From assembly GCF_018977255.1 (NCBI RefSeq), contig NW_024704742.1:3846001-3910000 (forward strand): a DNA stretch of 64,000 nt, in the 5' to 3' direction. The notes under the pieces were generated by a model. It saw only the letters and a program-made list of their open reading frames with translations, searched no databases and was not told the DNA's origin. The position numbers and the translations under genes were made by a program. This DNA is from Callorhinchus milii (taxonomy: Eukaryota). Shown here piece after piece: positions 12,800-53,810 of this stretch; position 1 is the first letter of the stretch, and every line of letters begins with the position of its first letter.

Positions 12800-13022
12800 C
12801 TAATAATAATAATCATCCTTACATTTGATATAGCGCTTTTCACGTCTTCTAGACGTCTCAAAGCGCTTCACAGAATAGACTGGAAAGTAATTGACTGTAT
12901 ATTTGTGAGCAAAACACGGCAGCTAATTCCGCACAGCAGTGTCCCATAAACAGTCATGGATTGAAGTGACCAATTTATTATTGTTTTTTTTCTTGAGGGA
13001 TTATTATCAGGCGTGTGGAGCA
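12800..13022 (-). mobile_element. Same SINE, 5'-truncated
   Basis: Tail and core on the minus strand, about 45 nt from the exon 9 donor. Confidence 0.85.
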
Positions 13023-13067
13023 AGAAAAATATACTTGTACACAACAAATGTATTAATCAATAATTAC

Positions 13068-13270
13068 CTTTTGTTGAGAATGTCTGGTTGTTCGATGGTA
13101 CTGTTGCTTTCACCATCATCTATAATTTGAGTCACTTGCTTTTCCAATCTTTGGGAGATGTCTGCACATCTGCACATAAGCTTATGAACTACTTCCCGCT
13201 CGTTGATGATGGTCTTGCAATGCCATATCAGGTCTTCAGACAAACCATTTGCCCGCTGGAACATTTGAAA
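13068..13270 (-). CDS. SMARCAD1: SMARCAD1 coding exon 9 (203 nt)
   Basis: cctccag|FQMFQRANGLSEDLIWHCKTII..EQPDILNK|gtaatt; phase 0 to 2. Confidence 0.96.
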
Positions 13271-16200
13271 CTGGAGGAAAAAAAAGTATAAGTTAAAAGT
13301 TAGCAAGATAAAAATGGTCAGTATTGAAATTTTTGGTATATAATTATGTTCAAGCTAAACATCGGCAATAGTTTCTCTCACTCCAACCCGATCCATACTA
13401 TTTGCCATTATCAGGATAAAGCTAGCTGAAGTCAGATATGTCAAGGCAAGTTCCAGAATAAAAGCTCCCTCTATTCTGATGAAGTGGCCTCAACTCCAAC
13501 TTCAGAACAGCACTCTTTGATGCACCAGTTCCTACAAAAATTCTGTTAGTTTCCATGGTGCAATTCACTGATATTTTAGTTCTGTGGATGACTGTTCATG
13601 GAGTACATGAGGTTGCGCACATGGATCGATTGGTCACATCTCATTGTTACTGTGAGTAGTGGCCTGTGCAGATTACCTGCACATTTTCCCAAATAAGTCA
13701 CAACAAAATAATGTTTTGAGCACTTTCAATTGCTTCATGACAAGATGTCACATCAAGTGTTTGTGGTACTGTGTTTGTGTCAAGGTTGAAACCGTCTAAT
13801 CAATTTAGGATAGAATCCTTACAGCCCCCAATCTCAGGAGATCAATAGGTTACCACCTGAATTGCTTCCACTTCCAAATAAAACTTGCAATTACAATTCA
13901 GCGTACTTAACAGGGGCTGTGTGGAAACCCGAGAAAAGCGAGAATTGTTTGTATCAATCAATTCACTGGAAAAAATAACTAAACTCTAATTTGTTAAAAA
14001 TATGAATTAAGCTAGATTTCTTCCAAGAAACCGTTTGTTGAAAAACAATTGTGAAGTGATACCATTGTTTTCTGGGCTGCACAATTCGGTTTTGTGTGGT
14101 TTTGTCAGGTAAAATTGTGCTCACATTCCTACAAAAGTAAACCCAACACCATAAATCAAAATAGAAATGGATTGTCACCTGAGAGGAAATATAGGTTAAC
14201 ATTTCAAATGTACCCTTTATCAGAACACTGAGGATCTCGATCGACTGTAGATTTACAGCATTTGATCGTTCACATTTAGTTTCTTTTTATTTGTCCCATA
14301 AATCATGTCTGGATAGAAATTTTGCATTCTCCTAAATTTGCCTCAAGTTAGAATTCATCAATGGTTGTACAAACCGGTGAGACTGTACTCATGCACAGAT
14401 AGGATTTGTTCCTACTAATTCATTCCAAAAAAGGTTCCAAAACATATTTCTGAAATTTATAATCCTGAACGCAAAGGGAAAAAATTGTAAAGCTTCACAG
14501 CATAAAATATTCAGTAACTCACAATATTCTTAGCCATTTTTACTCAGAATAGAAACATGGTCTTTAACAGACTAACGAATTTATACCAAACTAAGCTAAA
14601 ATTTATGAGAAAGAAACAGGAGAGACCAATGTGCAACATCTGTCTCTGGTCCCAAATTTTTAGAAAAGTAGCAATTCTACCTCTTAACGCGCTCAATTTC
14701 TCAACAAATATCAGTGGTAGATTTTCCAGCCCGTCTCATTTTACAAATTTTAGTGGAAAATGCACATTTTCAAATGAGGAAACCATGCAGATAATGAGCA
14801 ATACCACAAATTTAGTGCACTATATACTGCACAATATGCAAATACATCTGCTAGCAGTAAGTGGACAAATATTTTTAAATTTACCTTACTGCACAGTATA
14901 AATGATCAGACAAATACCATTAATGACCACTTGACATAATTAATCCATAAAGTTTTACATTAATGGCAGTGGTGATAGAAAATTCTTCATTAAATAGCAA
15001 TATTGTTTTAACACTAGAACTAGTCATACCAATCTCAAACATCAACACAACTATTTCAGGTTTACCACACAGCAGAAAATGTATGCACTTTGGAACTTGA
15101 ACAAAAATTATAGTAGTAATTCACTTTAATTAAATTGTTTAAATTAATTTTAATCATCTTCAAAACTTAGGGTTAGGGTTAATTTGTTAATTACATAATA
15201 AACCCTTTTATATTTGCTTAATTACATAATTAGGAGTACCCGCTATCTCTCACACATGTTTATATATGTTAATAAACTCCACTGATGAACTGGGAAAGGG
15301 TTTAAAGAATAAGAAGGACTAGTCTCAAACATAGAATTTTACGTTATGAGGAGAGATATTCAGAAAAAAAATGTTTTTATCTGAGAGAGTACTGGAGGGA
15401 GGGCAGATAGGAGGGCAGATAGGAGGGCAATGTGATAAGATTTTTAAAGTGCTGAGGGGCTACTTGATTTTACAGTGCATGTACAGAAGAGCATATTGTT
15501 ACAATTATCAACAGTAAGAATCCTTGCATTTGATATAATGCCTTATCGTGTCATCAAGACGTCTCAAAACGCTTCTCAGAATATACTGTAAAGTGAATCA
15601 ACTGCATATTTTGTGTGTAAAACGCCTCAACACAAGGAGAGATTTGTAGTACGAGAATTTGATCACAAAGCGGATATATGGAAAAGACTGCCAAGATGCA
15701 TCAATTAAAAATAAAAATAGAATCTGGGTGCTTGGGAATTTCATTGGAGGTTTTCAGGATAATCATACTGAAATGAATATATATTTCAATAGAAACTACA
15801 TGACTGGAGCCAGGGTGTTGGGAAAGAGAAATTGTCTGCAGATAGAAATAGGCTAAATGTGAAGTAGATTGAGCAAATTACATGAGTAACATAGAACATC
15901 TGTTTAGAATTCTTTCCCCTGCCTCCATGGGATGGTGTGTGAAGTCCACAATTTGGGTAGGTTTCGGTTACCGTGAAAGTTGCTTGAACGACCAAGTAAT
16001 GAACTGGATTTATGATAAATTGGGTTACAGGGAGGCAGGGCTCCAGACTACACTGACTGGTCAATTAAGGAAATGAAGGAAAGTTGGCTTCACAGTTGGC
16101 ACATTTCTGACAAAGCTCCTCACATGTGGAACTGGATTAAGCAGTTGGTAAGTGGCACTGAACGTGGACATCTAGAACATCAAGTTGTCCTGCAACTGCT

Positions 16201-19200
16201 TTCCACCATGTCAAAGGCAGATGTTCATCAAATAGCTGATAAGGAAAGTTTGACACTTGGCATAACAGCTGCTAGACACCATTACCTGGAGTCCAGGTTC
16301 AGAATCACATGCTTATTTATCCAGGGCTTGGGATCCACCTTGATTAATGAGCAAAGAAAAGCATCTGCTGCTGAAGTCCACACTATTAACTGGTGGAAAC
16401 ATTGCTCAATGGGTAAGGGCGTGGCAGGAGGATGATGGCAATTTTCTAGTGCATTTCATGCTGAGACTTGGAAGGAGTTACTAGTACTGTTCATGACAGA
16501 CCAGCTCATTGGCAGTACTTAGAGGAACATAAACGTTACTGTTTGGCTCCTAATAATCTTGTAAACCAAAGTCTTTGAAAAGGGTGGTCCTAGCAGGAAA
16601 ACGTGTGTGGTATGTGTGAGAGGAAATGAAAAAGCAAACTAGAAAAAAGATGTGCACAAGGGAGCGAAAATGAGAGAGGAAAAAATAAGAGCACAATGTG
16701 ATCCTTGAAAAATTGAAGCCAGGTCAAAAGATCATCTATTAAATCACTAATTCCAGGATCCTGGTTTTGTTTCATCAGCAAACCTGCTGACCATTGTCAA
16801 TCTACAATAGGCATCTATACAAAATACAGTAAACATTTTTAGTCAGTCAGTCACAATTATGCACTAATGCTTCAGACATTTGACTAGTCAGAATATCAGC
16901 TTCAAAAGATAAATGTGCAAATGCGTTTATTCTGTGCAATGAGAGCAAACATATTTGCTCATCATAAGCTTATTTTACAAAGGGCTCTTGGAATCCTACA
17001 AGAAAGATAACTTTTTTTCTTTCATATAATTCAAGGATCATATGTACACACATATAGAATAAGAACACCGCTAATAAATTAACCTGGACCTAACAATACA
17101 AGCACAGACAAATTGCTGCTGCCGATGATTTGTTTGTGCAAGGATTTGCTTACTATTGGATTTGACTTTGATTTTGTAACCTAGATGCAATGCTGCACTG
17201 AATTAAATCAACACTTGAGAAACATTCATTCACTTCCAGCACAAGTTGGCAATCTTCCTCCTTTTCTACACAATGTTTTTCAAAGATCAGTGATACAATA
17301 ATGGTCAAATATCAACTCAAACCTGTTTTGCCCTGGTGAAAGGAAGTAGACTATTTAATAACCCAGAGTACACAGACCCAAGATCTTGATGCAACATGTT
17401 CCATAATTCAGCATTTCTCAGTGTTCCAGGTCCCTGAACAAATTCATAGGTTCCAGAGAATTCATTTTAGAGAGTAACTGGAGACCAAGAAGAATTTTTT
17501 CCCTAAACTCCAATATCACATCCATTTGCGGCAAGTATTGACAATACTTGAGTATTTATTTAGATTGATGCAAAGGTACCAATAGTTCCAAATCCTTGAA
17601 AGATTATGGATTCCTCAAGTGCACACTATGACATTTAGTTAATGCTGAATTAATCTTTTAAATTGAGAAGTGTGGAACGAGGATGATTGTTCACAGGAGT
17701 TGAACTGCTGTTAAATTAAAACACATGAATCGTGGACACCCTCAGACAAAGGCAACTAGAAATAATACTAGCAGCAAGATCACTATAGAATTAGCGGAAA
17801 TGCAACTGTGATGACATAAACAGCATTTTCTCAAGACAATCCACTGCGCTGTGTGATTATAAACAATAATCTACAAATGAGACAGGTTCTTAATTCAGTT
17901 TGCATGAATTTTCCTCCCAGATCAAAAGTTGGAAGCTTTAGCAATTTCTGAAAATGTATTTTTTATGATGGCTGTAAGTGTATGCACCTGATGTAGATAC
18001 ACATGGAAATAGTTGGTGTTGGCTGCAGCATTCTGTCCAGTTTACTCAAGTCTACCAAAACATATTTTAAAATTTGCTAAAATGATAATCCTTTCATTTG
18101 GTGTTGTGCCTTGTCGTAAAAATAATATTTGTATTTGATATATCGCTTCATGTCTTCGAGGTGTCTCAAACAGCTTCACAGAATATACTGTAAAGTGAAT
18201 TGACTGTATTTATTTTGTATGGGCAAAATTGTGTATTGCACTTTCACATCAGGAAAGTGCCTCCCAGGATTTTTCTGTAAATTAATAATATTAATAATCC
18301 TTGCATTTGATTTAGTGCTTTTCACGTCTTCTAGACTTCTCAAAGCGCTTCACAGAATATACTGTAAAGTGAATATTTTGTGGGCAAAATTGTGGTGACT
18401 ATTATTTTTTGTAGGTGAATGCAGCAACCAAATTGCACCCAGCAAATTTGTTTATTTTCCTGACTCGCAGGAGTGGCATTAAATCGGACTAGCACTGCCT
18501 GAGGAATGAAACAAACCTCAGTCTACAGCTGCCGTCTGATCAGTTAACCCACATTTAAAACCCTGTTGCAGTAGCAAATCTACTTAATTTGCAGTTAAAA
18601 TTTATTTGGCAAGTTAATTTTATCTTTGATGCACATCAAGCAGTTTTGAAACACGATATAAATACCAGTGCCACATAACAAAATCCTCTCCCAAATACTA
18701 CTGACATATATTTAGAGGGGACTGCAGAAAGCATTGTATTAGACTTTTAGCATCTCTTTCTGAACTCATTTGTTTTTTTCAATTAGAAGAATTAGAAGAA
18801 AAAGTACCCTTTGTATTTTATGTGCCATTTGTAGCTTATTCGGTACAGTTCAGTGAAAATCTGTCATCCACAAATCAAACAGAACGAGTAGGAAGAACTA
18901 TGTTACACAGAAAAAAACCTGTAGAATGACACTTTGATTAGCCACCCAAAATCTACAATTTACACTTATAATGCCTTTTATGTTAGGACAACATCTCAAA
19001 AGACTTTACAAAGACTGAACAGGAACCCAAGCAGAGAGCTGGGGAGTGGCTGAAAGGAACCTGGGAGGTCAATATAGTCAGCACCTGAAGTTAGAGCTAC
19101 CGACTAGGGCTAAGCAGAATAGCCTTGGTGTTCTCAATTTTGAATTGGAGAAAGTTGCGTCACATCTGGGAGAAATTTACTTGTAAGATTTCAAAATTGT

Positions 19201-19724
19201 TACCACTGTGGTTTTGCAGGAACTCATACAAGAAATGGTGGGAGAAAAAGAAAAAGAGCAATCATACTATCTTGAGAAGTACAAAACCTTTTAAGTGAAC
19301 GCAATATTTTCTGGCAAAACGTGGATGATGATCATGCTTAGTTTAACTTAACTCTCGTAAGCTAAATCAAATGGCCACCGTCGCCTAAATATCAAGGAGT
19401 TCAGCCAATGGTTGTGCAGAGTCATAGAAACGTGTAAAGAAAATTACTACAGCAAAAAACAAGCAATTTAGCCCAACTAGTGTTTATACTCCACATGAGC
19501 CTCCATCTCTCCCAATTCCCTCTCCTGAACCTTTTATTCCATTCTCCCTCACGTATGGATCAAGTTTCTTCGTTAATACATTGATAGTGGGGAGCAATCA
19601 CTGAAATTTCAGAAATTGTCATGAATTGATCTTATAGCTCAATCTATAGTATGGCTCAAACACCTTTTTTTTTAAAAAACATGGCCACCACATTCACTCA
19701 TTTTCAATCCTCAGCATCGAGTAT

Positions 19725-20025
19725 GTCAACCTGGATCAGTTAGTAACACTCTTGCCTCCGAGTCAGAAGGTTGTGTGTTCAGGCCCCACAACGGGATTTT
19801 GAACTCAATGTCTAGGCTGACACTCCGGTGCAGTTCATTGTTTGAGGTACCACTCCTGCGAATAAGAAGTTAAACGGAGGTTTCTTCTGCCTGCTCAAGT
19901 CGATATTAAAGATTCCGTGGCACTATTCCAAAAGTGAAGGAAGTTTCTCCTGTACTTTACATCTGTGAAGCACCTTGAGACATCCTCCCATCGTGAAACA
20001 TACTGTACCAAATGTAAGGGTTATT
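19725..20025 (+). mobile_element. Older long SINE copy, internally deleted
   Basis: CTCTTGCCTCCGAGTCAGAAGGTTGTG..CTAGGCTGACACTCC..GGCACTATT. Confidence 0.7.
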
Positions 20026-21917
20026 CACCACCACGAGAACCAGGTTTTATACTCTTCTAAGTCCAGATAACTCTCACTCCAAGAACAAAGAGCACAGTGA
20101 TAAGTTATCCATAGTGGCAAGTTAGTCATAGGTCCTCCCTGGCCACAAGGGGGTTCTGTGACTCATGCGAGCACTCATGCTCAGCTGCAGAGGCCTCTAT
20201 TGGAGGGCCACGCCATGGCCAATCCTGCCACACTAACTTGCTAGATATTTATCAAGGCCAGTAGGTTTTCTTATTTCCGAAGCCAACAGTAACCAGCCAA
20301 GGATCCCTCATCTGGTCTGAGTAAAGAATCCTGCAAAAACAAGAGTCCAAAGGACAATCTAGACTTATTTGCTTTAAGAACTCTGCATCTTTGGTGACTT
20401 CTTTCCATTTTACTGCAAATTGCCGAGGACGGTCTTACTGTACTGTCTATTGGACCCAGAACCAGGAAATTACCTGCAATGTCACTTAACGCATTTTTAA
20501 TTGCCAACCCTTGGTGCAGGCTCACAGGCACAACCTGGGCCACAAAAGAACAGCTACAATTCTCCTTTCTTTTCCATATCAGTTTCAATGTTGGGCTCCA
20601 AGTTGTAGTATCTCTATAGTACATGTGCAGGATCTGAGGTGGCTAACTGGACTTTGAGGAAGCCCGAGTCAGCTTAAATCTTTTGTTCTTGAAGACTTCC
20701 TATTCTGGTTGAGGTGCCACTATTGAATCAACATAGTATTTTACACAGGAAAACAGTTAAGACATTTAGCGATTCAATGAATTCCTTCCATGATATTGTA
20801 AAACAGATACCCCAATCCAGAAAAACTTGCATTTTTGGCACCACTAAATAATATTATGACAACAATGTGAGCTTGTCTTATTAAAATTCAAGCCACTGCT
20901 GGAATATGGCTTCAAGCAATACAATGCATTTCAGAAAGCAGCTGCAAGCATACTCATGTGTACACACCCAACCGGCGTTTTGTAGATCCATGCTTGCAAA
21001 GCGTACAAATGTCGCAAATGTAAAAATATCCCCTTTGGAATTCTCAACTCTGACCAGACTTGTACACTAACACCTTAGTCGCCTTCAATTAAAATACTTA
21101 AAATTTTGTTCTAAAAGCTTTGTAAATGACCTCACTATTTGTCCGTTTTCCCGTGGTACATATAATTATTGGTCTATAATTTAATAATCGCTTCGATTGC
21201 AAACATTATGTTCTCAACCTGCCTGAACAAATCTCCCAATTCCAGGAAAACCCTTTATTTGAATTCCTGTCTTGCAAGATCCAACTTGTGAAATAAATGT
21301 CCCATTTTGAATAAAGAACTGTAGAATGCAATTAACTCCTTCTTCAAACAAAGTCAATTCAATACTAAAAGATTGTGAAGTTTTGAAGATCTCTATACAA
21401 TGAAATCAGATAATATATCTCTTGCTTGCTTTTCTAACCAATTTTCCCTAATGTCAGCATTTCATACATCAGCACAACCACATAGCGCAATCAAGTGGTG
21501 CAAGCTATTTTCTGAAAAACACATTTTAAATAAACTTCAAAGTATCACTTCAAAAGCAGCACTCTAACAGTTTCATATTATAGCCAAGTACTCAAAGAAA
21601 ATTGAAACAGATTGTTTGTTAAATATGTATACAATTTGGAGGGAAATTTAATCTTGAAGAAAAAACTTGAATTTGTTCACTTTTTGACACGTTTGCTGCT
21701 TTCATGTAACTAGCATTCTATGAAACCATTCCTGCTTGTTTTCTTTGATTAATCAGAAAATCAGCTGCAATCAAGATAACTAGGTGGCCATTTCATCTGT
21801 TTTTAGACTACCTTAGGCTCATAATATTACAGAGTTTCACATTTATTTTCTCCCAATTAACATTCCTAAACCTCATTCGCATTTTCAATCTCTAATATTT
21901 TAAGTAAAGGTAGTTCA

Positions 21918-22207
21918 ATAATAATAATAATCCTTGCATTTGATATCGTGCTTTTTCACATCTTTTAGACATCTCAAAGCGCTTCACAGAAGATATTGTA
22001 AAGTGAATTGACTATGTTTGTGGGCGAAACGCAGCAGCCAATTGCACACAACAGTGTCCCACAAACAGTCGTGGCTTGAAGTGACCAATTTATTATTTTT
22101 TTTCTGGAGGGATCATTATCAGCATGTAGAGTATGGAAACTTGCCCAACGTGTCGCCCTGTCGGGAATCAAACCCAGGTCTCTCGCTTGCGAGGCAAGTG
22201 CTCTAAC
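21918..22207 (-). mobile_element. Same SINE, near full length
   Basis: Tail, core, B box and anticodon arm on the minus strand. Confidence 0.88.
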
Positions 22208-23082
22208 AAAAGTAAAGGCGTATAAAGGTTTAAGTAATGGTGGTCCACTTTGTTTACAGGAGAAATACAAAAAACTCTCCATAGTAACCCTCTACTCTAA
22301 TAGTTGCTTTGCAGTCAAATAAAATCCAAACACATTGTTAGTTTCATAGGTTAAGTATGTAAACGACTTGTTTGAAGTTTTTTTTATGTAATACAGACAC
22401 ATAATTTTGGCAAGACAAATTGCTAAAAAAATACAAGAAAGGGGAAGAAAGTTCATGTTCAGTCATGAATGCTTGGCAGCTGCCAAAGAACAAGTAATAA
22501 AACTGTCAATTTAGATTAGACAAGCTGCAACAGCATCTGAAATGTGGGTGAGGTTGCTGACTGTACTGTACTGCACATTTTTAAAAATTTGTTTAAAATT
22601 TAATCGACAAAAAAGTTCTTATGTTGCATTGAGCAATCTTTGGGCCATCAATCAAAACCGCTAGAAACAAATTTAAACAAGTTTGAAAACAACATACTTG
22701 ACATGTTTCTCCTGGATTGTATCTTACGGCTTTTTTTCCTTTTTAAAAAAAAAGCTTACCGGATTTCTAAGTCTCTTTTGCAACCAACAGTAGATTGCGT
22801 TTCTTCTTTTACTCTTTGGATTTTAAAAAAATGCAAAATAAAAGCTTCAGTTACCCACAGACATTTGAAATTATTTAATTTAGACAAAGAAGCAGAGGCC
22901 TGTATAACTGCATAAAATATTGCTTAAGAACAATCAAACCAGTCTCAAATGTTTAAATTAAATAGTTGATATACCATACAATATTTATCATCCTGCAAGA
23001 TTTCTAGAGGAATTCACAACAGATTCGCCATTTTTTTAAGGATTAACAGAACAGTGATTGTAAAGGTAAAATGGCTACTTAC

Positions 23083-23535
23083 CACTGAAGCTTTCTCATT
23101 CCTGCAGGCTCTATGTCTTAAGAATTTACTTTCTCTAAACGTTGGGTTTCCAGGATATTTTCTGTGAACTGGCTATAACCAGTAGAAACCTTGCAACCTG
23201 ACTGCAAAAGCCATCCTTTTTCCATCAATACAATGCTCAAAAAAAATTCAACATAAAAACAACTGTTCCTCCTAGAAGGTGCCAAAAATATCATTGACTG
23301 CTTCTTGAGCCATATTGTTGCCCAGGAAGGTTTCTGTCCATACTCAGACTTTGAAATAGCAATAAAACATAGCCCATGCTTTTCTTCTGCAATTTTTGGA
23401 GCTGAAACAGCAAAGAACTGGGTTGCAAGCACCTCATACCTTAATGCCACTTCTTCTTTCACCCACTTCAGCCACATACATATATAGTTTCTCTGTTACC
23501 AGAATGAGTGACAGATTACCAGCCAATCAGCTTGG
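23083..23535 (-). promoter_or_regulatory. Candidate internal promoter plus non-coding alternative first exon (short SMARCAD1 isoform)
   Basis: Strong donor CAGTG|GTAAGT at 23083/23082, CCAAT box at 23523-23527, no recognisable repeat. Same intron and similar offset as the human short-isoform exon (recalled). Confidence 0.6.
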
Positions 23536-23735
23536 CTTTTTAAGTAAAAATCATCCCATATAGTATTCAAAGTAAGGTCATATGATCCTTATTTCAAATG
23601 CTATTGGTTCAGAATGAGTGTAATGTTTGAATCTCATCACATGAAGGTCATCCTTTAAAGTCTCCCTATGTGCAATAAATGTTGGTTATTTAATGATTTG
23701 GGGATTATTTTTTTCAAAAAAAAAAGCAGGCTCAC

Positions 23736-24148
23736 CAATGTCTCCCAATTGTTAAAGGGCCGGAGCTCCGTGATCTTCTGAGCCTTTCGCAAAGAACATT
23801 GAGGTATCAGTGTAAGTTCATCCAGTGTAGCATCCTGCAGGAAGCTGACAATTTTAGTCCTGCATACACCTTCCACCTCTTCATCTGCACTGCTGTAGTC
23901 CTCGTCAAGTGAACTGTCACCATCAGAAGAAAGGGGTTCTGAATCTTCGGAATCGCTGGTTTCTCTTTGAATGATTCTGCCACCTTTTCTACTTTTGTCG
24001 TGTTTTTTTATTTTACCATTCTGCTCTTCTGCTGCAGGAGTTTGTTTCAATTGCATAAGTGGCATCTCTTTTGGCTGCTTTTTAAAGTTTGAGGTGATCT
24101 CGTTTCCATTTATGTTTTTAGCTTCTGATTCAGAAGGCACTTCATCTT
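23736..24148 (-). CDS. SMARCAD1: SMARCAD1 coding exon 8 (413 nt)
   Basis: ..SSLDEDYSS..FLQDATLDELTLIPQCSLRKAQKITELRPFNNWETL|gtgagc; phase 1 to 0. Confidence 0.96.
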
Positions 24149-26084
24149 CTGAAGATATAAAAAAAATTAAATACAAACAAGTTTGGAACACTGAGAAAGT
24201 AAAACCCAGAATAAGTTTACTTTACATCTCAAAATCATTGAAGTAAGATGTTCATTGTTAATCTTATCTTCTTAAAAGCAAGAAGTAGCGATGCTATTAG
24301 GGTATATTGTGGTCTCAAATCTTAAAAGAAGTGGAGCAACAAAACCCAAATTTAAAAAAAAATAAGACTAGCAATTGATGAATCCTTCCAACATTTTTTG
24401 AGTTTCTAAAATTTGAAAACCAACACATGAAAATCAAGCATATTTTTGCTTTTGGAACCCAAAGCCTTAAACTAGTCAACAACTGCCTGCTATCTCATCT
24501 TTATCAGATTGCTGCGTTGGAAAAAAATGTTACATTAATATTTTTACTTCACCAAGTTCTACCATTTCTTTCAAACTTACCATGTTCTCTGTATCAGACT
24601 TGAGAATGGTTCAAGAAAATTAAGTTCAAGGTTAATCTTATAATTTAGAGTTCAGAAGAGAAGATAAAGATCCATAACAAACAAAAACCCATTCTAATAT
24701 ACAGTGGGATTCAAGCAAAGCTTTTCACATCAAGAATGGTTGTAGTAAATTCTACAGGAGTTATTTTTCCAGAGTACAGTGAGGCTGTTGACTTGGATTC
24801 AAAGTGTTGACTTGGATACCTTTTAAATGAACAACAAGAGCAAGTAAGAATTTCCAAACCAACTAAAGACGAATATTACTTCAGTTTCCCAAATTCAATG
24901 CAGCACTAAGTCTCCTAGTAGACTTAAAAAAAGCAAATAACTTTGCACTCTTTGAAACTAGTTTGTACAAAGGTTACTTAAATATTGCCGCAAACTAAAA
25001 ACTAAAACTGGATCTGAAAGAATCATATTGTTTCAAGCCAATGAGACAAGAGTATTTAAATGTGTCTGGATAGTGAACGTGGACTGTCATAAAACAAAAA
25101 TATGACAGTTCAGTATGTTCACAAGTCGGTTTGGGTCTTTCGGGCAATGCTGTATAATGTTTAAAGAGAATCAAAAAATGATTGTAAAAGTGCTAACTGA
25201 AATGCACAGATTATCAGCTATAATAGCATTGTTCGCTTAAGATCCGAAGAACATTTACAAATGCTTTTTGTAGAAGCTACTTACAGTAGATACTTTTGTA
25301 CATTTACCTTATGCAATTCATTCTGTACTAGAAATAGCTGCATTACCAAAAGCCTGAAAATGTAGTCTATTAAGAGACTTTATGCTGCATTACATTTTGA
25401 AAACTAAATGAATATCTGTTCTTCAGTTGGTTTGGGCACCCTTACAGCAAAGGAACAGTTTTCAGACTCTTTAAAAAGTTATACGTTTGCCTGGCAGCTC
25501 AGTGGATATACCATATGGTAAGCTACATTGACCACAAAAACCCCACCAAGGTTTGAAATCTCAACTGTGTTTACAGTGGTGGAAACAGTGGAAGCAAAAC
25601 TGGCTGAGGATGTCACAGAAGTAACGAGTGAATTCCATTGTACATTGTGTGCAGGTGGTGTTTGGCTGTGATGTCAAAGTAAAAAAGCCTGGCAAGGCTC
25701 CCAAAACCACCCATTTACGTCTATGCAACGCACCTCAGCAAGAATCACCTCCCTCAGGAAAAGAAAGAAATGTTATTCCTCTTCACTGAATCGCAAACTT
25801 GCATCACCCAACCCACTACATTCCTGTTTATGAAGGGCAACACTATTGCGATTTTGCAAACAGGATGTAGGTTATCTTTTTGATGAGGGGAAGAAAAAAA
25901 GCTTAAAATTCATTGCAATATTTTTGTTGCAACGTTAAGATTATATATGTGGGAAGTTGGTGTATTTGCAAGCAATTGCAACAATGAATAAGTTTATTAA
26001 GAACACCGCTGTAGAATGTATCACTTTAAGCGTGATTTCAATTCAAAAGCAAATACAGTGCAAAGAATTTTTGGATTTCCCCAG

Positions 26085-28534: not shown

Positions 28535-30497
28535 TTTGAATGAGTACTTTGCATCATTTGTGGAGTCCTGTAGCTCAGTGGTTGGAGCACTCGCCTTGCA
28601 AGCGAGACACCTGAGTTCAATTCCAGGCAGAGGGCGAAACCTTGGGCAAGTTTCCTTACTCCACACAGAGCCTAATAATAATCCCTCCAAAACCAAAAAC
28701 AATAATAAATTGGTCATTTTCAATCCATGACTGTTTGTGGGACACTGCTGTGCGCAATTGGCTGCCACGTTTCGCCCACAAATATACAGTCAATTCACTT
28801 TACAGTATATTCTGTGAAGTGCTTTGAGACGTTGAGAAGACGTGGAAAGCGCTATATCAAATGCAAGGATTATTATTATTATCTGTCTTCAGAAAAGAAA
28901 AGGATGCAGCCAATGCCACAGCATCGGAGGAGAGGGTAGACATTGGATAAGATAAAAATAATCCGAGAGGAGGTACTAAAATGGTTGACGGTACTCAAGG
29001 TAGATAAATCACCTGGTCCAGACGGGATGCATCCTAGGTTACTGAGGGAAGTAAGGGTGGAAATAATGGAGGCTCTGGCCACAATCTTTCAATCCTGCTT
29101 GAACATTGGGGTGGTACCAGAGGACTGGAGGGTTGCAAATGTTACTCCCCTGTACAAAAAGGGGCAGAAGGATAAACTCGGGAACTACAGACCAGTCAGT
29201 AGTGGAGAAACTTCTAGAGACTATAATCTGGAACAAGATAAATGTTCACTTAGAAAAATATGGGTTAATAAAGGACAGCCAACACAGATTTGTTAAAGGC
29301 AAATTGTGTCTAACAAAGAGAGTATTTTTAATGAAGTAACGGAGAGGGTGGATGAAGGTAGTGCAGTTGATGTAGTTTATATGGATTTTCAAAAGGCATT
29401 TGATGAAGTGCCACATAAGAGACTTGTAAGCAAAATAGAAGCCCCCGGTATTAATGGGACAGTGGCAGCAGATACAGAACTGGCTGGGAGACAGAAAGCA
29501 GAGAGTGGTGGGGAACGGTTGTTTTTCTGACTGGAGGGAAGTGTGCAGTGGTGACCCCAGGGCTCTGGAATGGGACCACTGCTGTTTTTGATCCATATAA
29601 ATAATCTGGACTTTGCAGATGATACTAAGATAGGAAAAGTAGTAAATAGTGAGGAGAATAGTACAGACTGCAAAAGGACATAGACAGATTGCTAAAATGG
29701 GCATTCATGTGGCAGATGAAGTTTTTATGTGGAGAAATGGGAGGAAGAATGAGGAGTGGCAATATAAGCTAGATGGTAGCATCTTAAAGTGGATGAAGGA
29801 ACAGAGAGACCTGGAGGTTCATATAAGTAAATCCTTGAAGGTGGCAGGACAGGTAGATAAAGCTGTTAAAAAACCATACGGGATACTGGGCTTTATAAAT
29901 AGGGGCATAGAATACAAAAGTCAGGAAGTTATGATGAACCTTTATATAAAACACTGGTTAGGCCTCAGCGAGACTCGGTTCAGTTCTGGGCCCCACACTT
30001 TAGAAAGGATGTCAAGGCATTGGAGAGGGTACAAAGGAGATTGACCAGGATGGTACCAGGAATGAGGGACTTCAGTTATCAGGAGCGGTAGAGAAGCTGG
30101 GATTATTGTCCTTGGAGCAGAGAAGGTTAAGAGGAGACTTAATAGAAGTTTTCAAAATTATGAGGAGATTTGATAGAATGAACAAAGAGAAACTATTTCC
30201 ACTGGCGGGTGGGTCGGTAGGGGGACACCGATTTAAAATCGTTGTTCAAAGAAACAGGTGAGGAGAAATTTTTTCACACAGCGAATTGGTTGGATCTGGA
30301 ATGCATTGCCTGAAAGGATGGTGGAAGCTTATTCGATAACAGCTTTTAAGAGAGAAGTAGATAATTATTTGGGGAGGACAAGTTTGCAGGGCTATGGGGA
30401 GAGCACGGGGGGAGTGGGATTGATTTGGTTAGCTCTTTTCAAAGAGCCGGCACAAATGGCCTCCTTCTGTGCTGCATAATTCCACAATTCTATGATT
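28535..30497 (+). mobile_element. CR1 LINE, 5'-truncated, decayed ORF2 (RT) plus 3' end
   Basis: DKSPGPDGMHPRLLRE, VPEDWRVANVTPLYKKG, VDVVYMDFQKAFD, LGFINRGIEYKS; 3' end AAATGGCCTCCTTCTGTGCTG..ATTCTATGA. Confidence 0.93.
28562..28881 (+). mobile_element. Same SINE, full length, nested in CR1
   Basis: Anticodon-like arm CTCGC-CTTGCAA-GCGAG. Splits the CR1 motif LNEYFAS/VF. Confidence 0.9.
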
Positions 30498-48899: not shown

Positions 48900-49428
48900 C
48901 TGCTGCCGCCGTGTGGTCCTTGGGCTGTGATGGCAAAGGGAGTTCGCAGGCGTCCTCCTCCTCCTCCTCTTCCTCTTCTTCTCCTCCTCCTCCTTCTTCT
49001 TCTTCTTCCTCCTCCTCTTCCTCCCCTTCCCCGTGCGCAGGTGGCGAAGGGGGTCCGGAGTCACTCTCCTCGTGGCCGAGTAATGACGACGGTGGCGGAG
49101 GCGGTGATGATGATGATGATGGCGGCGGCGGCGGCGGAAGCGGTGACGATGATGACGACGACGACGACGATGATGAAGAAGAAGAAGAAGAAGAAGAAGA
49201 AGAAGAAGAAGAAGAAGAAGAAGAAGAAGAAGAAGAAGAAGAAGAAGAAGAAGAAGAAGAAGAAGAAGAAGAAGAAGAAGAAGAAGAAGAAGAAGAAGAA
49301 GAAGAAGAAGATGATGATGAAGAAGAAGCGGCAGCGGCAGCTCGGGAGCGGCCCCGCTCGCCGGGCCTGGGCTCGAGCCGCTCTCCTGTCTTGTGGTAAC
49401 GGAAGCGCTCGAGATTGAGGCAGCTCAT
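48900..49428 (-). CDS. SMARCAD1: SMARCAD1 coding exon 1 (529 nt; poly-Ala/Ser/Pro/Glu expanded N-terminus)
   Basis: GCCGCCATG Kozak context. MSCLNLERFRY resembles the human start MNLFNLDRFRF. Donor CAG|GTGAAG is phase 1, matching the next exon; the donor position is less certain than for the other exons. Confidence 0.85.
49175..49309 (+). repeat. (GAA)45 trinucleotide repeat inside coding exon 1
   Basis: 135 nt uninterrupted; read as TCT (Ser) on the coding strand. Confidence 0.95.
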
Positions 49429-50309
49429 GGCGGCGGGCGGGCGGGCGGGCGGTGGGGAGGGAGGGAGGGGGGGGGGGGGGGGGTGGGGGAGGAGCGGCGG
49501 CGGCGGCGGCGCGCGTGCGGTCGCACCTTTTTGAACGCGGGAGTCGGAACGGGCGACCGTTACTGCGGCAACGTCACAAGCGGCCCTCAGGCCCGCGAGG
49601 GGGAGGGGGAGGAGGAGCGGCGCGGCTCTCACTCACTCACTCTCTCTCTCTCTCTATATATATATATACACACACGAGACCTGCCTGAGGTAGTGGGTTA
49701 AACGCGAACTTATTCACGAGCCTCTGTCTTCTCCATCGTTGAGATATATATATATATATATCTATAAATTCCCCCTCCACTCCCCCGTCTCTATTTTCAA
49801 CGAAGGCCCCGAAGTCTCTCTCTCTCTCTCTCTGCGTTTTGGGGGGTGTTGTTGTTGTTGTTGTGGTGGTGGTGGTGGTTTAGGGGTTGTGTGTGTATGT
49901 GTGTGTGTGTGTTTTTCACCCCACGCGCCCCCCTCCCCTTTCTCCTCCTCCTCCTCCTCCACCAGCACCACGCGAAAGCCGTACGGGCCGGGCCGGGTCG
50001 TACGTAAGCACGCACGCACGCACGGACGGGGCGGACGCGCACGCAACGCAACGCACCGCACGCACGCACGCAACCCGGCAGCAACGAGCGCCGCGATTGG
50101 AGGAGACGGCAGGCGGCGGACCAATCGGCGGCTCCCGTGGGAAGGGGAAGGGGGGCGGGGGGAAGGAGGAGGAGGAGGAGGAGAAGAAGAAGGGGAGGTT
50201 AAAGGCCATGTACAGCCACCCCTTCCCCCCCCCCTCCCCCAAACCCCACCCGCACCCTCCCTCCCTCCCTCCTCCAACCATATATATTATACAAACACAT
50301 GGTTATGCC

Positions 50310-53108
50310 CCACCACCACCATCCCCCCACCACCCCCCTCACATCACCACACCCCACACACCACTCACACCCCCACACCACCACACCACCCACACCCCCA
50401 CCACCACACCACCCCCCACACCACCCCCCACACACCACTCACACCCCCACACCACACCACTCACCCCCACACCACACCACACCACACCATACACCCACAC
50501 CACACACACCCCCACACCACACTACCCCCACACACCACTCACACCCCCACACACACCACACCCACACCCCCCACACACACACACCCCCACACCCCACACC
50601 ATACACCCACACCACACACACCCCCACACCACACTACCCCCCACACACCACTCACACCCCCACACACACCACACCCACACCCCCCACACACACACACCCC
50701 CACACCATACACCCACACCACACCACCCCCCACACACACACCCCCCCACACCGTACACCCACACCACACCACACCCCCCACACACACCACACCCCCCACA
50801 CACACCACACCACTCACACCCCCACACCACACCACCCTCCCCACACCATACACCCACACCACACCACCACCCCCACACCACACACCCCCCCACACCCCAC
50901 ACCATACACCCACACCACACCACCCCCACACCCACACCACCACACCACCCCCCATACCACACCACCACCCCACACCACCACACCACCCCCACACCACACC
51001 ACCCCCACACCCACACCACCACACCACCCCCCACACCCACACACCACACACCACACCACCCCCCATACCACACCACCACCCCACACCCACACCACCACAC
51101 CACCCCCCACACCACACCACCCCCCACACCCACACCACCACACCACCCCCCAAACCCACACACCACACACCACACCACCCCCCACACCACACCACCCCCC
51201 ACACCACACCACCCACCACACCACACACCCCCCACACACCACACCACCCTCCCCACACCCACACCACCAGCCCCCACACCATACACCCACACCACACACA
51301 CCCCCCCACACCCCACACCATACACCCACACCACACCACCCCCCACACCACCACACCACCCCCCACACCACACACCACACCACCACCCCCACACCCACAC
51401 CACCACCCCCCACACCATACACCCACACCACCCCCCACACACACCCACACACCACACCCCCACACCACACCACCCTCCCCACACCCACACCACCCTCCCC
51501 ACACCCACACCACCACCCCCCACACACACACCACCCCACACCATACACCCACACCACCCCCACACACACACCATACACCCACACCACACCACCCCCCACA
51601 CCACACCACCCCCACACCACACCACCCCCACACCCACACCACCACCCCCCACACCATACACCCACACCACACCACCCCCCACACCCACACCACCACACAC
51701 CACCCCCCACACCCACACCACACCACCACCCCCCACACCACACACCCACACCACCACACCATACACCCACACCACACCACCCCCCACACCCACACCACCA
51801 CCCCCCACACCATACACCCACACCACTCACACCCCCACACCACACCACCCCCACACCACACACCCCCCACACACCACACCACCACCCCCCACACCATACA
51901 CCCACACCACTCACACCCCCACACCACACCACCACCCCCCACACCACACACCCACACCACCACACCATACACCCACACCACACCACCCCCACACACACAC
52001 CCCCCACATCCCACACCACACCACCCCCACACCCACACCACCACACCACCCCCACACCACACACCCCCCACACACCACACCACACCACCACCCCACACCA
52101 CACCACCCCCCACACCCACACACCACACCACCCCCCACACCCACACCACCCTCCCCACACCCACACCACCACCCCCCACACACACACCACCCCACACCAT
52201 ACACCCACACCACCCCCCACACACACACCATACACCCACACCACACCACCCCCCACACCACACCACCCCCCACACCACACCACCCCCACACCCACACCAC
52301 CACCCCCCACACCATACACCCACACCACACCACCCCCCACACCCACACCACCACACACCACCCCCCACACCCACACCACACCACCACACCACACACCCAC
52401 ACCACCACACCATACACCCACACCACACCACCCCCACACCCACACCACCACCCCCCACACCATACACCCACACCACTCACACCCCCACACCACACCACCC
52501 CCCACACCACACACCCCCACACACCACACCACCACCCCCCACACCATACACCCACACCACTCACACCCCCACACCACACCACCACCCCCCACACCACACA
52601 CCCACACCACCACACCATACACCCACACCACACCACCCCCCACACACACCCCCCCACATCCCACACCACACCACCCCCACACCCACACCACCACACCACC
52701 CCCCACACCACACACCCCCCACACACCACACCACACCACCACCCCCACACCACACCACCCCCCACACCCACACACCACACCACCCCCACACCACACCACC
52801 CCCCACACCACCCCCACCACACACACCCCCACACCCCACACCATACACCCACATCACACCACCCCCCCACACCCACACCACCACACCACCCCCCACACCA
52901 CACACCCCCCACACACCACCACCCCCACACCACACCACCCCCCACACCCACACACCACACACCACACCACCCCCACACCACACCACCCCCCACACCACAC
53001 ACCCCCCACACACCACACCACCCTCCCCACACCCACACCACCAGCCCCCACACCATACACCCACACCACACACACCCCCACACCACAACCCCCCCACACC
53101 ACACCCCC
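50310..53108 (+). repeat. 2.8-kb irregular C/A low-complexity satellite
   Basis: Almost only C and A, with recurring CACACCATACACCCACACCA and CACACCACTCACACCCCCAC variants. Confidence 0.95.
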
Positions 53109-53810
53109 AAAAAAATATGCGGTCAAGTCACTTTACAGTATATTCCACGAAGCGCTCGGAGACGCCTCAAAGGCGCCGCGTCAAAATGCGAGAGTTATTA
53201 TTATTTCAATAAGTTATAAATGTAATTGTTATAATCATCATCATTATTGTAATTATACTAAATCACTTATTATTCTGATGATGATAATTATTTCTGATTA
53301 TAATAAACGCCTCTGGAGTTCCCACGCCTCGGCGGGGAGGGCACGGGGAAACGAATGATCGTCCTCGTCATCGGTTCACTCATTTCGATCCGCCGCCGTG
53401 CGAGGGCTCGCCGCTGTGCGCAATTTGGCCGTCGCGTTACGCACCGCATGCTATATACGGTCTGTTCGCTTTACAGTAACGTTCTGCGCTTTTGAGGCGT
53501 CGATAAGGCGCTATATCAAATGCAAGGGTTATTTATTAACGTGTTTGGTTTGGATACTCTTAAGCATGGTGATGGCTTTCCGCGTGCGTCAGATACCCAG
53601 CCGACCCCCCCAAAAAAGCAGTGTCTTGTCTGGTTCTCGACTGTCCTTCAACCCCCCCCCCCACTCTCCCCAACACACACACACACACACACACACACAT
53701 GCTCTTATTCAAAAAAAGAAGGGAGTTTTTCTCTCCCGGTGTCCTGGCCAATAACCCCCAAAATAAAAAAAAATGATCACTCACTCCATGGCTGTTTGTG
53801 GGATATTGTA

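Follow-up and report, generated by a model that had tools for sequence, protein, structure and literature searches.

Callorhinchus milii, the elephant shark, is a chimaera and has no dermal ridges. In 64,000 nucleotides (nt) of its genome (NCBI RefSeq assembly GCF_018977255.1, contig NW_024704742.1, positions 3,846,001 to 3,910,000; this whole stretch is hereafter the window, numbered from its first letter), assembled RNA contigs record a splice within the gene SMARCAD1 that joins position 23083, inside a large intron, to position 13270, the acceptor at which the next exon normally begins. The splice is real, and the explanation of it that we favour, and consider more likely than not, is that 23083 closes an alternative non-coding leader exon for an ATPase-only SMARCAD1, transcribed from an internal promoter, and that this exon is the positional counterpart of the first exon of human SMARCAD1-s, in which mutation abolishes fingerprints (bioRxiv 10.64898/2026.08.17.745107; PMC8659716). 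A first-pass annotation, made from the letters of the window, had proposed an ancient counterpart of the skin-specific promoter and first exon at 23077-23650; of that interpretation the splice, the orthologous intron and the ATPase-only open reading frame have stood, while the start codon has turned out not to be conserved and the isoform to be modelled in RefSeq already.

Splicing from 23083 to 13270

SMARCAD1 occupies the minus strand of the window, with coding exons running from about 48.9 kilobases (kb) down to 0.36 kb when the protein P0021, of 1016 amino acids (aa), is compared with it by tblastn; the peptide of exon 13270-13068 is 100% identical to the C. milii SMARCAD1 entries P0001 and P0002. 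Two constitutive exons frame the intron in question. The first, ending ..RPFNNWETL, lies at 23736-24150 on the minus strand and, from the tblastn match to P0021 and the joints in the contigs, ranks eighth among the coding exons of the window and corresponds by position to human exon 9. After ..NNWETL the canonical intron begins with GTGAGC at 23735 and extends for 10465 nt to the common next exon (13068-13270, minus strand), the equivalent of human exon 10, which opens TTT CAA ATG at 13270 and is read as FQM. The ATG at 13264-13262 is thus codon 3, in frame, as had been described from the letters, and it opens a reading frame of 597 aa. The boundary, ..WETL|FQM.., falls in phase 0 and is aligned with the mammal-type ..WEAL|FTKM.. 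(..ALFTKM..); that the human boundary also falls at L|F follows from the human ATG lying 9 nt into exon 2. Because the L|F boundary stands at the same aligned position, the C. milii host intron is, as judged from this alignment, orthologous to human SMARCAD1 intron 9.

A run search for 23083-23600 listed 13 runs, 11 of them with at least part of the stretch. Seven, from three studies, were guessed to be RNA, no run being recorded as such (word shares 1.00, 0.60, 0.42, 0.42, 0.40, 0.23 and 0.23), and four further runs from a fourth study, of about 890 million letters each, were unlabelled. Logan contigs of four runs from three studies (X1, X3, X4 and X6, with sample tissues in coded form) were compared with 13000-24300, and these are taken as transcript-derived because their contigs carry exon-exon joints; all results on joints rest on the 15 listed of 186. 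The canonical 23736-13270 junction is found inside long contigs of X4 (record 17) and X6 (record 24), each with the pieces 23736-24150 and 13068-13270, and in X1 the exons stand far above a continuously covered intron.

The splice itself was observed in X1, where one contig joins 13270 to 23083 and skips the 9812 nt of 13271-23082, with CT..AC at the ends on the plus strand, which is GT..AG on the gene strand. A junction linking 23083 to 13270 had been named beforehand as the observation to look for, and this is exactly the predicted joint. The donor is equally as described in advance (CAGTG|GTAAGT), its last exon base at 23083 and its GT at 23082-23081, 654 nt into the intron, so that GTAAGT (+1 to +6) occupies 23077-23082 on the minus strand behind an exon side of ..CAGTG. 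Two further contigs of the same run diverge at this point: record 8 (23083-24150) terminates exactly at 23083 and record 7 (22179-23112) runs on into the intron, a branch that is the pattern expected of a used donor. Two further studies contribute contigs inside the proposed exon, at 23198-23450 in X3 and 23272-23437 in X6. Their upstream ends, 13 nt apart, are a weak hint at best as to where the exon begins, and the stretches with no contig in X3 (23451-23735), in X6 (23438-23735) and, for both, in the unique parts of the remaining intron are blanks and not evidence, nor is the absence of a listed 23083 joint from X3, X4 and X6. From the X1 joint and the contigs of X3 and X6, the alternative non-coding leader exon is placed at 23083-23450 on the minus strand, that is 286-653 nt into the intron, with an exact 3' end and an approximate 5' end at about 23450.

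The proposed promoter, leader and product

The transcript would begin at an internal promoter made up of a TATA-like box (TATATAT, 23486-23480, minus strand) and an NF-Y-type CCAAT box (23527-23523), starting at around 23450-23456, and its leader exon, 23083 to about 23450, would be spliced via GTAAGT to the normal acceptor at 13270 with the removal of 9812 nt. TATA boxes typically lie some 25-35 nt, and CCAAT boxes some 60-100 nt, upstream of a start site. Measured from 23450, which is a contig end only, contigs being unable to reveal transcript starts, the TATA-like box here stands 30-36 nt upstream and the CCAAT some 75 nt. The TATA-like box is one of two TATATAT on the gene strand of the intron, and its putative function is assigned from its position. 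The CCAAT box reported by the first-pass annotation is present as AGCTGATTGGCTGG at 23532-23519 on the minus (gene) strand; it is an inverted box and a motif match to the NF-Y-type consensus, reading AGCCAATCA on the plus strand at 23521-23529. A second CCAAT, forward on the gene strand (GAACCAATAG), lies at 23603-23607, about 155 nt upstream of 23450. The AGGTCA half-sites reported alongside are likewise there, as motif matches, in the form of two TGACCT hexamers on the gene strand (AGGTCA on the plus strand) at 23650-23645 and 23580-23575, 70 nt apart. The block from 23077 to 23650 has no other BLASTN match in the window and the repeat finder returned nothing within it, in agreement with the view that it contains no repeat. 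Taken as a whole, an internal promoter is likely.

Ribosomes on such a transcript would meet 10 AUGs ahead of the main one, which the final upstream AUG overlaps, and would then initiate at the ATG at 13264. Across the spliced leader (23450-23083 plus the next exon) the frames of all 10 upstream ATGs close before the main ATG with the exception of the last, at 23099, which overlaps it, and the leader also carries an in-frame TAG at 23175-23173. Folded as RNA, 23450-23083 reaches -90.7 kcal/mol, a stability not above that of shuffled sequences (z = +0.61). Translation from 13264 would begin at what is residue 420 in the 1016-aa long form, so that the predicted product has 597 residues and lacks the N-terminal 419. 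Going by its frames, the leader is non-coding and the reading frame at 13264 is ATPase-only. The predicted protein corresponds exactly to XP_007900702.1 (P0020, 597 aa), in which Pfam recognises SNF2-rel_dom (1.3e-72) and Helicase_C (1.6e-24). With a cutoff of E <= 0.001, Pfam reported no CUE domain in the long form of C. milii; the label 'CUE-less' is applied because of the human literature (PMC8659716) and the loss of residues 1-419, and not because of a domain hit here.

The CUE-less isoform is not new for C. milii, as the RefSeq entries XP_007900702.1 (597 aa) and XP_007900701.1 (P0024, 613 aa) already describe it. These older Gnomon models were read via the EukProt copy, in which untranslated exons are not visible; the newer accessions in the same C. 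milii cluster are long forms only. XP_007900701.1 resembles the proposed transcript in starting from an exon within 23077-23650, and differs from it in splicing from 23440, with its ATG at 23481, instead of from the donor at 23083. When its N-terminus is read against the window, the coding part of this alternative first exon (MYVAEVGERRSGIK) falls at 23440-23481 on the minus strand, followed by the donor AAG|GTATGA and an intron from 23439. The resulting 23440-13270 joint is a prediction and is absent among the 15 of 186 joints listed. Because the ATG of this model overlaps the TATA-like box, XP_007900701.1 and a TATA-driven start at about 23455 cannot be one transcript.

Short models are by no means confined to the chimaera. 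Two shark-like NCBI entries, XP_078064934.1 (600 aa) and XP_059506023.1 (613 aa), show 95.7% and 94.3% identity to a Scyliorhinus torazame protein and, as in C. milii, have another 5' exon feeding the same acceptor (M|FKKFNR.. and MSEVLELSEDSVSV|FKKFNR.., respectively; shark-like long forms read ..WE(A/S)L|FKKFNR..). They differ from C. milii in that the start codon lies within the alternative exon, since the next exon is without an early Met; the comparison is one of protein sequences. The codons before the C. milii donor (23083-23088) read Ser-Val (TCA GTG|GT), and of the shark-like leaders (P0015, P0008) one ends ..Ser-Val| and the other Met|, which is compatible with one inherited ..(A/G)TG|GT donor in C. 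milii and sharks, a comparison of 2-3 letters only. Among the matches listed, the proteins shorter than 612 aa include 13 cluster representatives of 596-601 aa, 10 of which begin with Met at or near the start of the exon; these ten include amphibian-like, lizard-like, snake (Micrurus spixii), bird-like and shark-like (P0008) sequences as well as an 86-member cluster with the mammal-type start MSKTNG... Short models of 596-613 aa are found in shark-like, amphibian-like, lizard-like, snake and bird-like genomes, all of them pipeline predictions and not experiments.

Objections and competing explanations

Several observations weigh against the whole explanation. The 23083-13270 joint is carried by a single contig in one of the four runs, with 29 letters on its shorter side. 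None of the listed motifs is commoner than chance would have it: the gene strand of the 10465-nt intron has a single GTAAGT, GGTAAGT is found nine times in the window against 7.75 expected and RRCCAATSR (NF-Y-type) 13 times against 12.4, neither being enriched, and the intron has AGGTCA or TGACCT five times. It is because an RNA contig joins 13270 to 23083 that the observation rises above chance. The X1 contig extends without a break from position 24150 in the upstream exon as far as 23083, which would allow the donor to be an alternative 5' splice site with no internal promoter behind it, and XP_007900701.1, encoded from 23481, needs a start upstream of that position. The context of the main ATG is weak, with C at -3 and T at +4, and 10 upstream ATGs per 368 nt lie within the intron background of 7.5 +/- 2.3. 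The comparison of the C. milii and human exons is one of position and architecture. Finally, the first eight residues of the ATG-bearing exon, compared in 166 of 171 proteins, read F-x-K-M with Met at codon 4 in birds, reptiles, mammal types and some amphibian-like sequences; C. milii, with F-Q-M, has its Met at codon 3, a single codon away from that of tetrapods, and an early Met is missing from every shark- and ray-like sequence sampled (FKKF, FQKF, FNKF, FRKF). As sharks and rays lack the Met that the chimaera carries at codon 3 and tetrapods at codon 4, the start codon is not conserved.

The most probable of the competing explanations is convergence, in which both the exon and its internal promoter are real but have an origin separate from that of the human SMARCAD1-s exon. 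Promoters are often gained by large introns, and, besides the shifting Met, the coding leaders differ between the two C. milii models and those of shark-like type; no ray-finned-fish short form appeared among the best 120 of 720 matches, which proves nothing. Set against convergence are the use of the same intron, exons of about 368 and 378 nt, TG|GT donors in both and downstream introns of 9.8 and about 10.5 kb, together with the spread of short models through chimaera, shark, amphibian-like, squamate, bird-like and probably mammalian genomes. We regard independent origin as a substantial possibility that falls somewhat short of an even chance, and the descent of the human and C. milii exons from a common ancestral element as approaching, without quite reaching, an even call.

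It is unlikely that there is no internal promoter at all, and that 23083 is simply an alternative 5' splice site by which the upstream exon is extended by 653 nt. The transcripts would then be decay targets or messages for the N-terminal part only, as read-through from ..NNWETL closes after 26 codons at a TAA (23657-23655). The continuity of X1 record 8, a single contig across 23083-24150 that is unbroken at 23736, speaks for such an extension, as does a contig of X4 (23368-23703) that spans the spacer between the upstream exon and 23450. However, the X1 intron is covered throughout, and the unbroken contig does not discriminate because pre-mRNA would link both parts in the assembly graph anyway. 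Exon extension also sits poorly with XP_007900702.1, which begins at the downstream Met and not in the upstream frame, as an internal start would have it, and with TATA-like and CCAAT boxes at promoter-like distances from 23450. In X1 the mean depth is 335.2 for contig 23083-24150, 1250 for the contig with the junction and 1479.1 over the next exon; these values would fit junction RNAs mostly lacking the upstream exon, and as contig depth is a poor measure they are given no weight.

A cassette ('poison') exon, inserting stops into the long mRNA, is considerably less probable still. It would take an acceptor such as the AG at 23494-23493 (..cattctggtaacag|AG), a plausible pyrimidine-rich acceptor before 23492, together with the donor at 23083 or 23440, and it would provide the exon start upstream of 23481 that XP_007900701.1 (ATG 23481, donor 23440) requires; against it, no joint from 23736 into the block was present among the 15 of 186 listed, and 23492 is not where the contigs of X3 (23450) and X6 (23437) stop. 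Least credible of all, and very remote, is the possibility that the junction is an artefact of assembly or a case of rare splicing noise without a biological function: a lone contig from a single run, with 29 letters on the shorter of its two sides, has to be set against joint ends that coincide exactly with GT and AG at the next exon's natural acceptor, a contig break at 23083 that is independent of the joint and an NCBI model of the same product.

The wider locus and comparison with human SMARCAD1-s

Several other features of the window deserve record. Just upstream, in the sense of the gene, of the SMARCAD1 5' end lies a C/A-rich degenerate tandem array of 2.8 kb (50308-53109) with periods of 8 to 285 and a GC skew to -0.85, and a (GAA)51 run at 49175-49328 is found close to the first coding exon. 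The intron upstream of the ..NNWETL exon holds the remnant of a long interspersed element, with reverse-transcriptase-like open frames, at 28940-30476 on the plus strand. In the large intron that hosts the leader exon, a family resembling short interspersed elements recurs at 15510-15603, 18112-18205, 18286-18379 and 21920-22013, and also at 12902-12988 and 22017-22103; in all four runs the bins containing it reach summed contig depths in the range of some 10^3 to 10^5, and the family is the source of most spurious joints. Within the common next exon, position 13148 is C in all four runs and T in the window; the change is synonymous, turning AGA into AGG on the gene strand at the last base of an Arg codon, and probably reflects either a polymorphism or a difference in the individual from which the assembly was made. 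In XP_042192746.1 (P0002, 959 aa), a newer C. milii model, an unrelated tail of about 55 residues replaces ..GEEGSIPLNMATLLKASLGL, which suggests an alternative or mis-called 3' end outside the window.

A counterpart spliced in the same manner in a chimaera without ridges would mean that the isoform is not a fingerprint-specific invention. Tentatively, and with the balance tilted a little against it, the whole architecture of the human disease isoform could have been inherited from the last common ancestor of jawed vertebrates; as proposed, that inheritance may comprise an internal TATA/CCAAT promoter set some 290 nt inside the intron, a non-coding leader of roughly 370 nt with numerous upstream AUGs, the ..TG|GTAAG donor, roughly 10 kb of downstream intron and a product that is ATPase-only. 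In that case SMARCAD1-s would be older than fingerprints by more than 400 million years and would have an earlier role, perhaps in denticles or other appendages of the skin, while its start codon would have been replaced repeatedly, standing at codon 3 in the chimaera, at codon 4 in tetrapods and in the leader exon in sharks. The chimaera counterpart would furthermore provide a distant comparison by which to find the constrained parts of promoter, leader and donor. Its value is limited by the fact that gene-prediction pipelines have already modelled the short protein in C. milii and in sharks, and the C. milii exon is best described as a solid, moderately interesting lead for the study of SMARCAD1-s.

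Among the papers listed by our literature searches, none treats SMARCAD1 together with Callorhinchus or the cartilaginous fishes, or discusses the short isoform in animals other than mammals; in a zebrafish paper (PMC9585957) the skin isoform figures in the reference list only. For the human isoform, passages from two sources agree with what the first-pass annotation had stated of a non-coding first exon in this intron and a Met a few codons into the next exon; its statement that the donor lies 'about 0.67 kb in' was not found in those passages (bioRxiv 10.64898/2026.08.17.745107; PMC8659716). According to the same passages, SMARCAD1-s arises through alternative promoter usage, is expressed in keratinocytes and begins with an alternative exon 1, 378 nt long and non-coding, that lies within the long form's intron 9 at hg38 chr4:94,253,294-94,253,671 and has a TG/GT donor mutated at +1, +2, +3 and +5 (bioRxiv 10.64898/2026.08.17.745107; PMC8659716).

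Compared by position and architecture, the C. milii exon is the counterpart of that human first exon. Both lie in the orthologous intron, with the L|F phase-0 boundary in C. milii, and both feed the same next-exon acceptor; the C. milii leader of about 368 nt corresponds to one of 378 nt, and its ..TG|GTAAGT donor to the human TG/GT, the two sharing TG|GT and then GTA.G. The intron downstream spans 9812 nt in C. milii and about 10.5 kb (1.3 + 8.7 + 0.5 kb) in human (bioRxiv 10.64898/2026.08.17.745107; PMC8659716). Many upstream AUGs are common to both leaders, those of the human one being candidate upstream open reading frames that damp translation (bioRxiv 10.64898/2026.08.17.745107; PMC8659716), and those of C. 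milii not exceeding the intron background in number. The start codon differs, with the ATG 6 nt into the exon (codon 3) in C. milii and 9 nt into exon 2 (codon 4) in human, and the products are nevertheless nearly identical in length: a predicted ATPase-only protein of 597 aa in the chimaera and, in human, one of 596 aa that consists of residues 431-1026 and is likewise without the CUE domains (bioRxiv 10.64898/2026.08.17.745107; PMC8659716).

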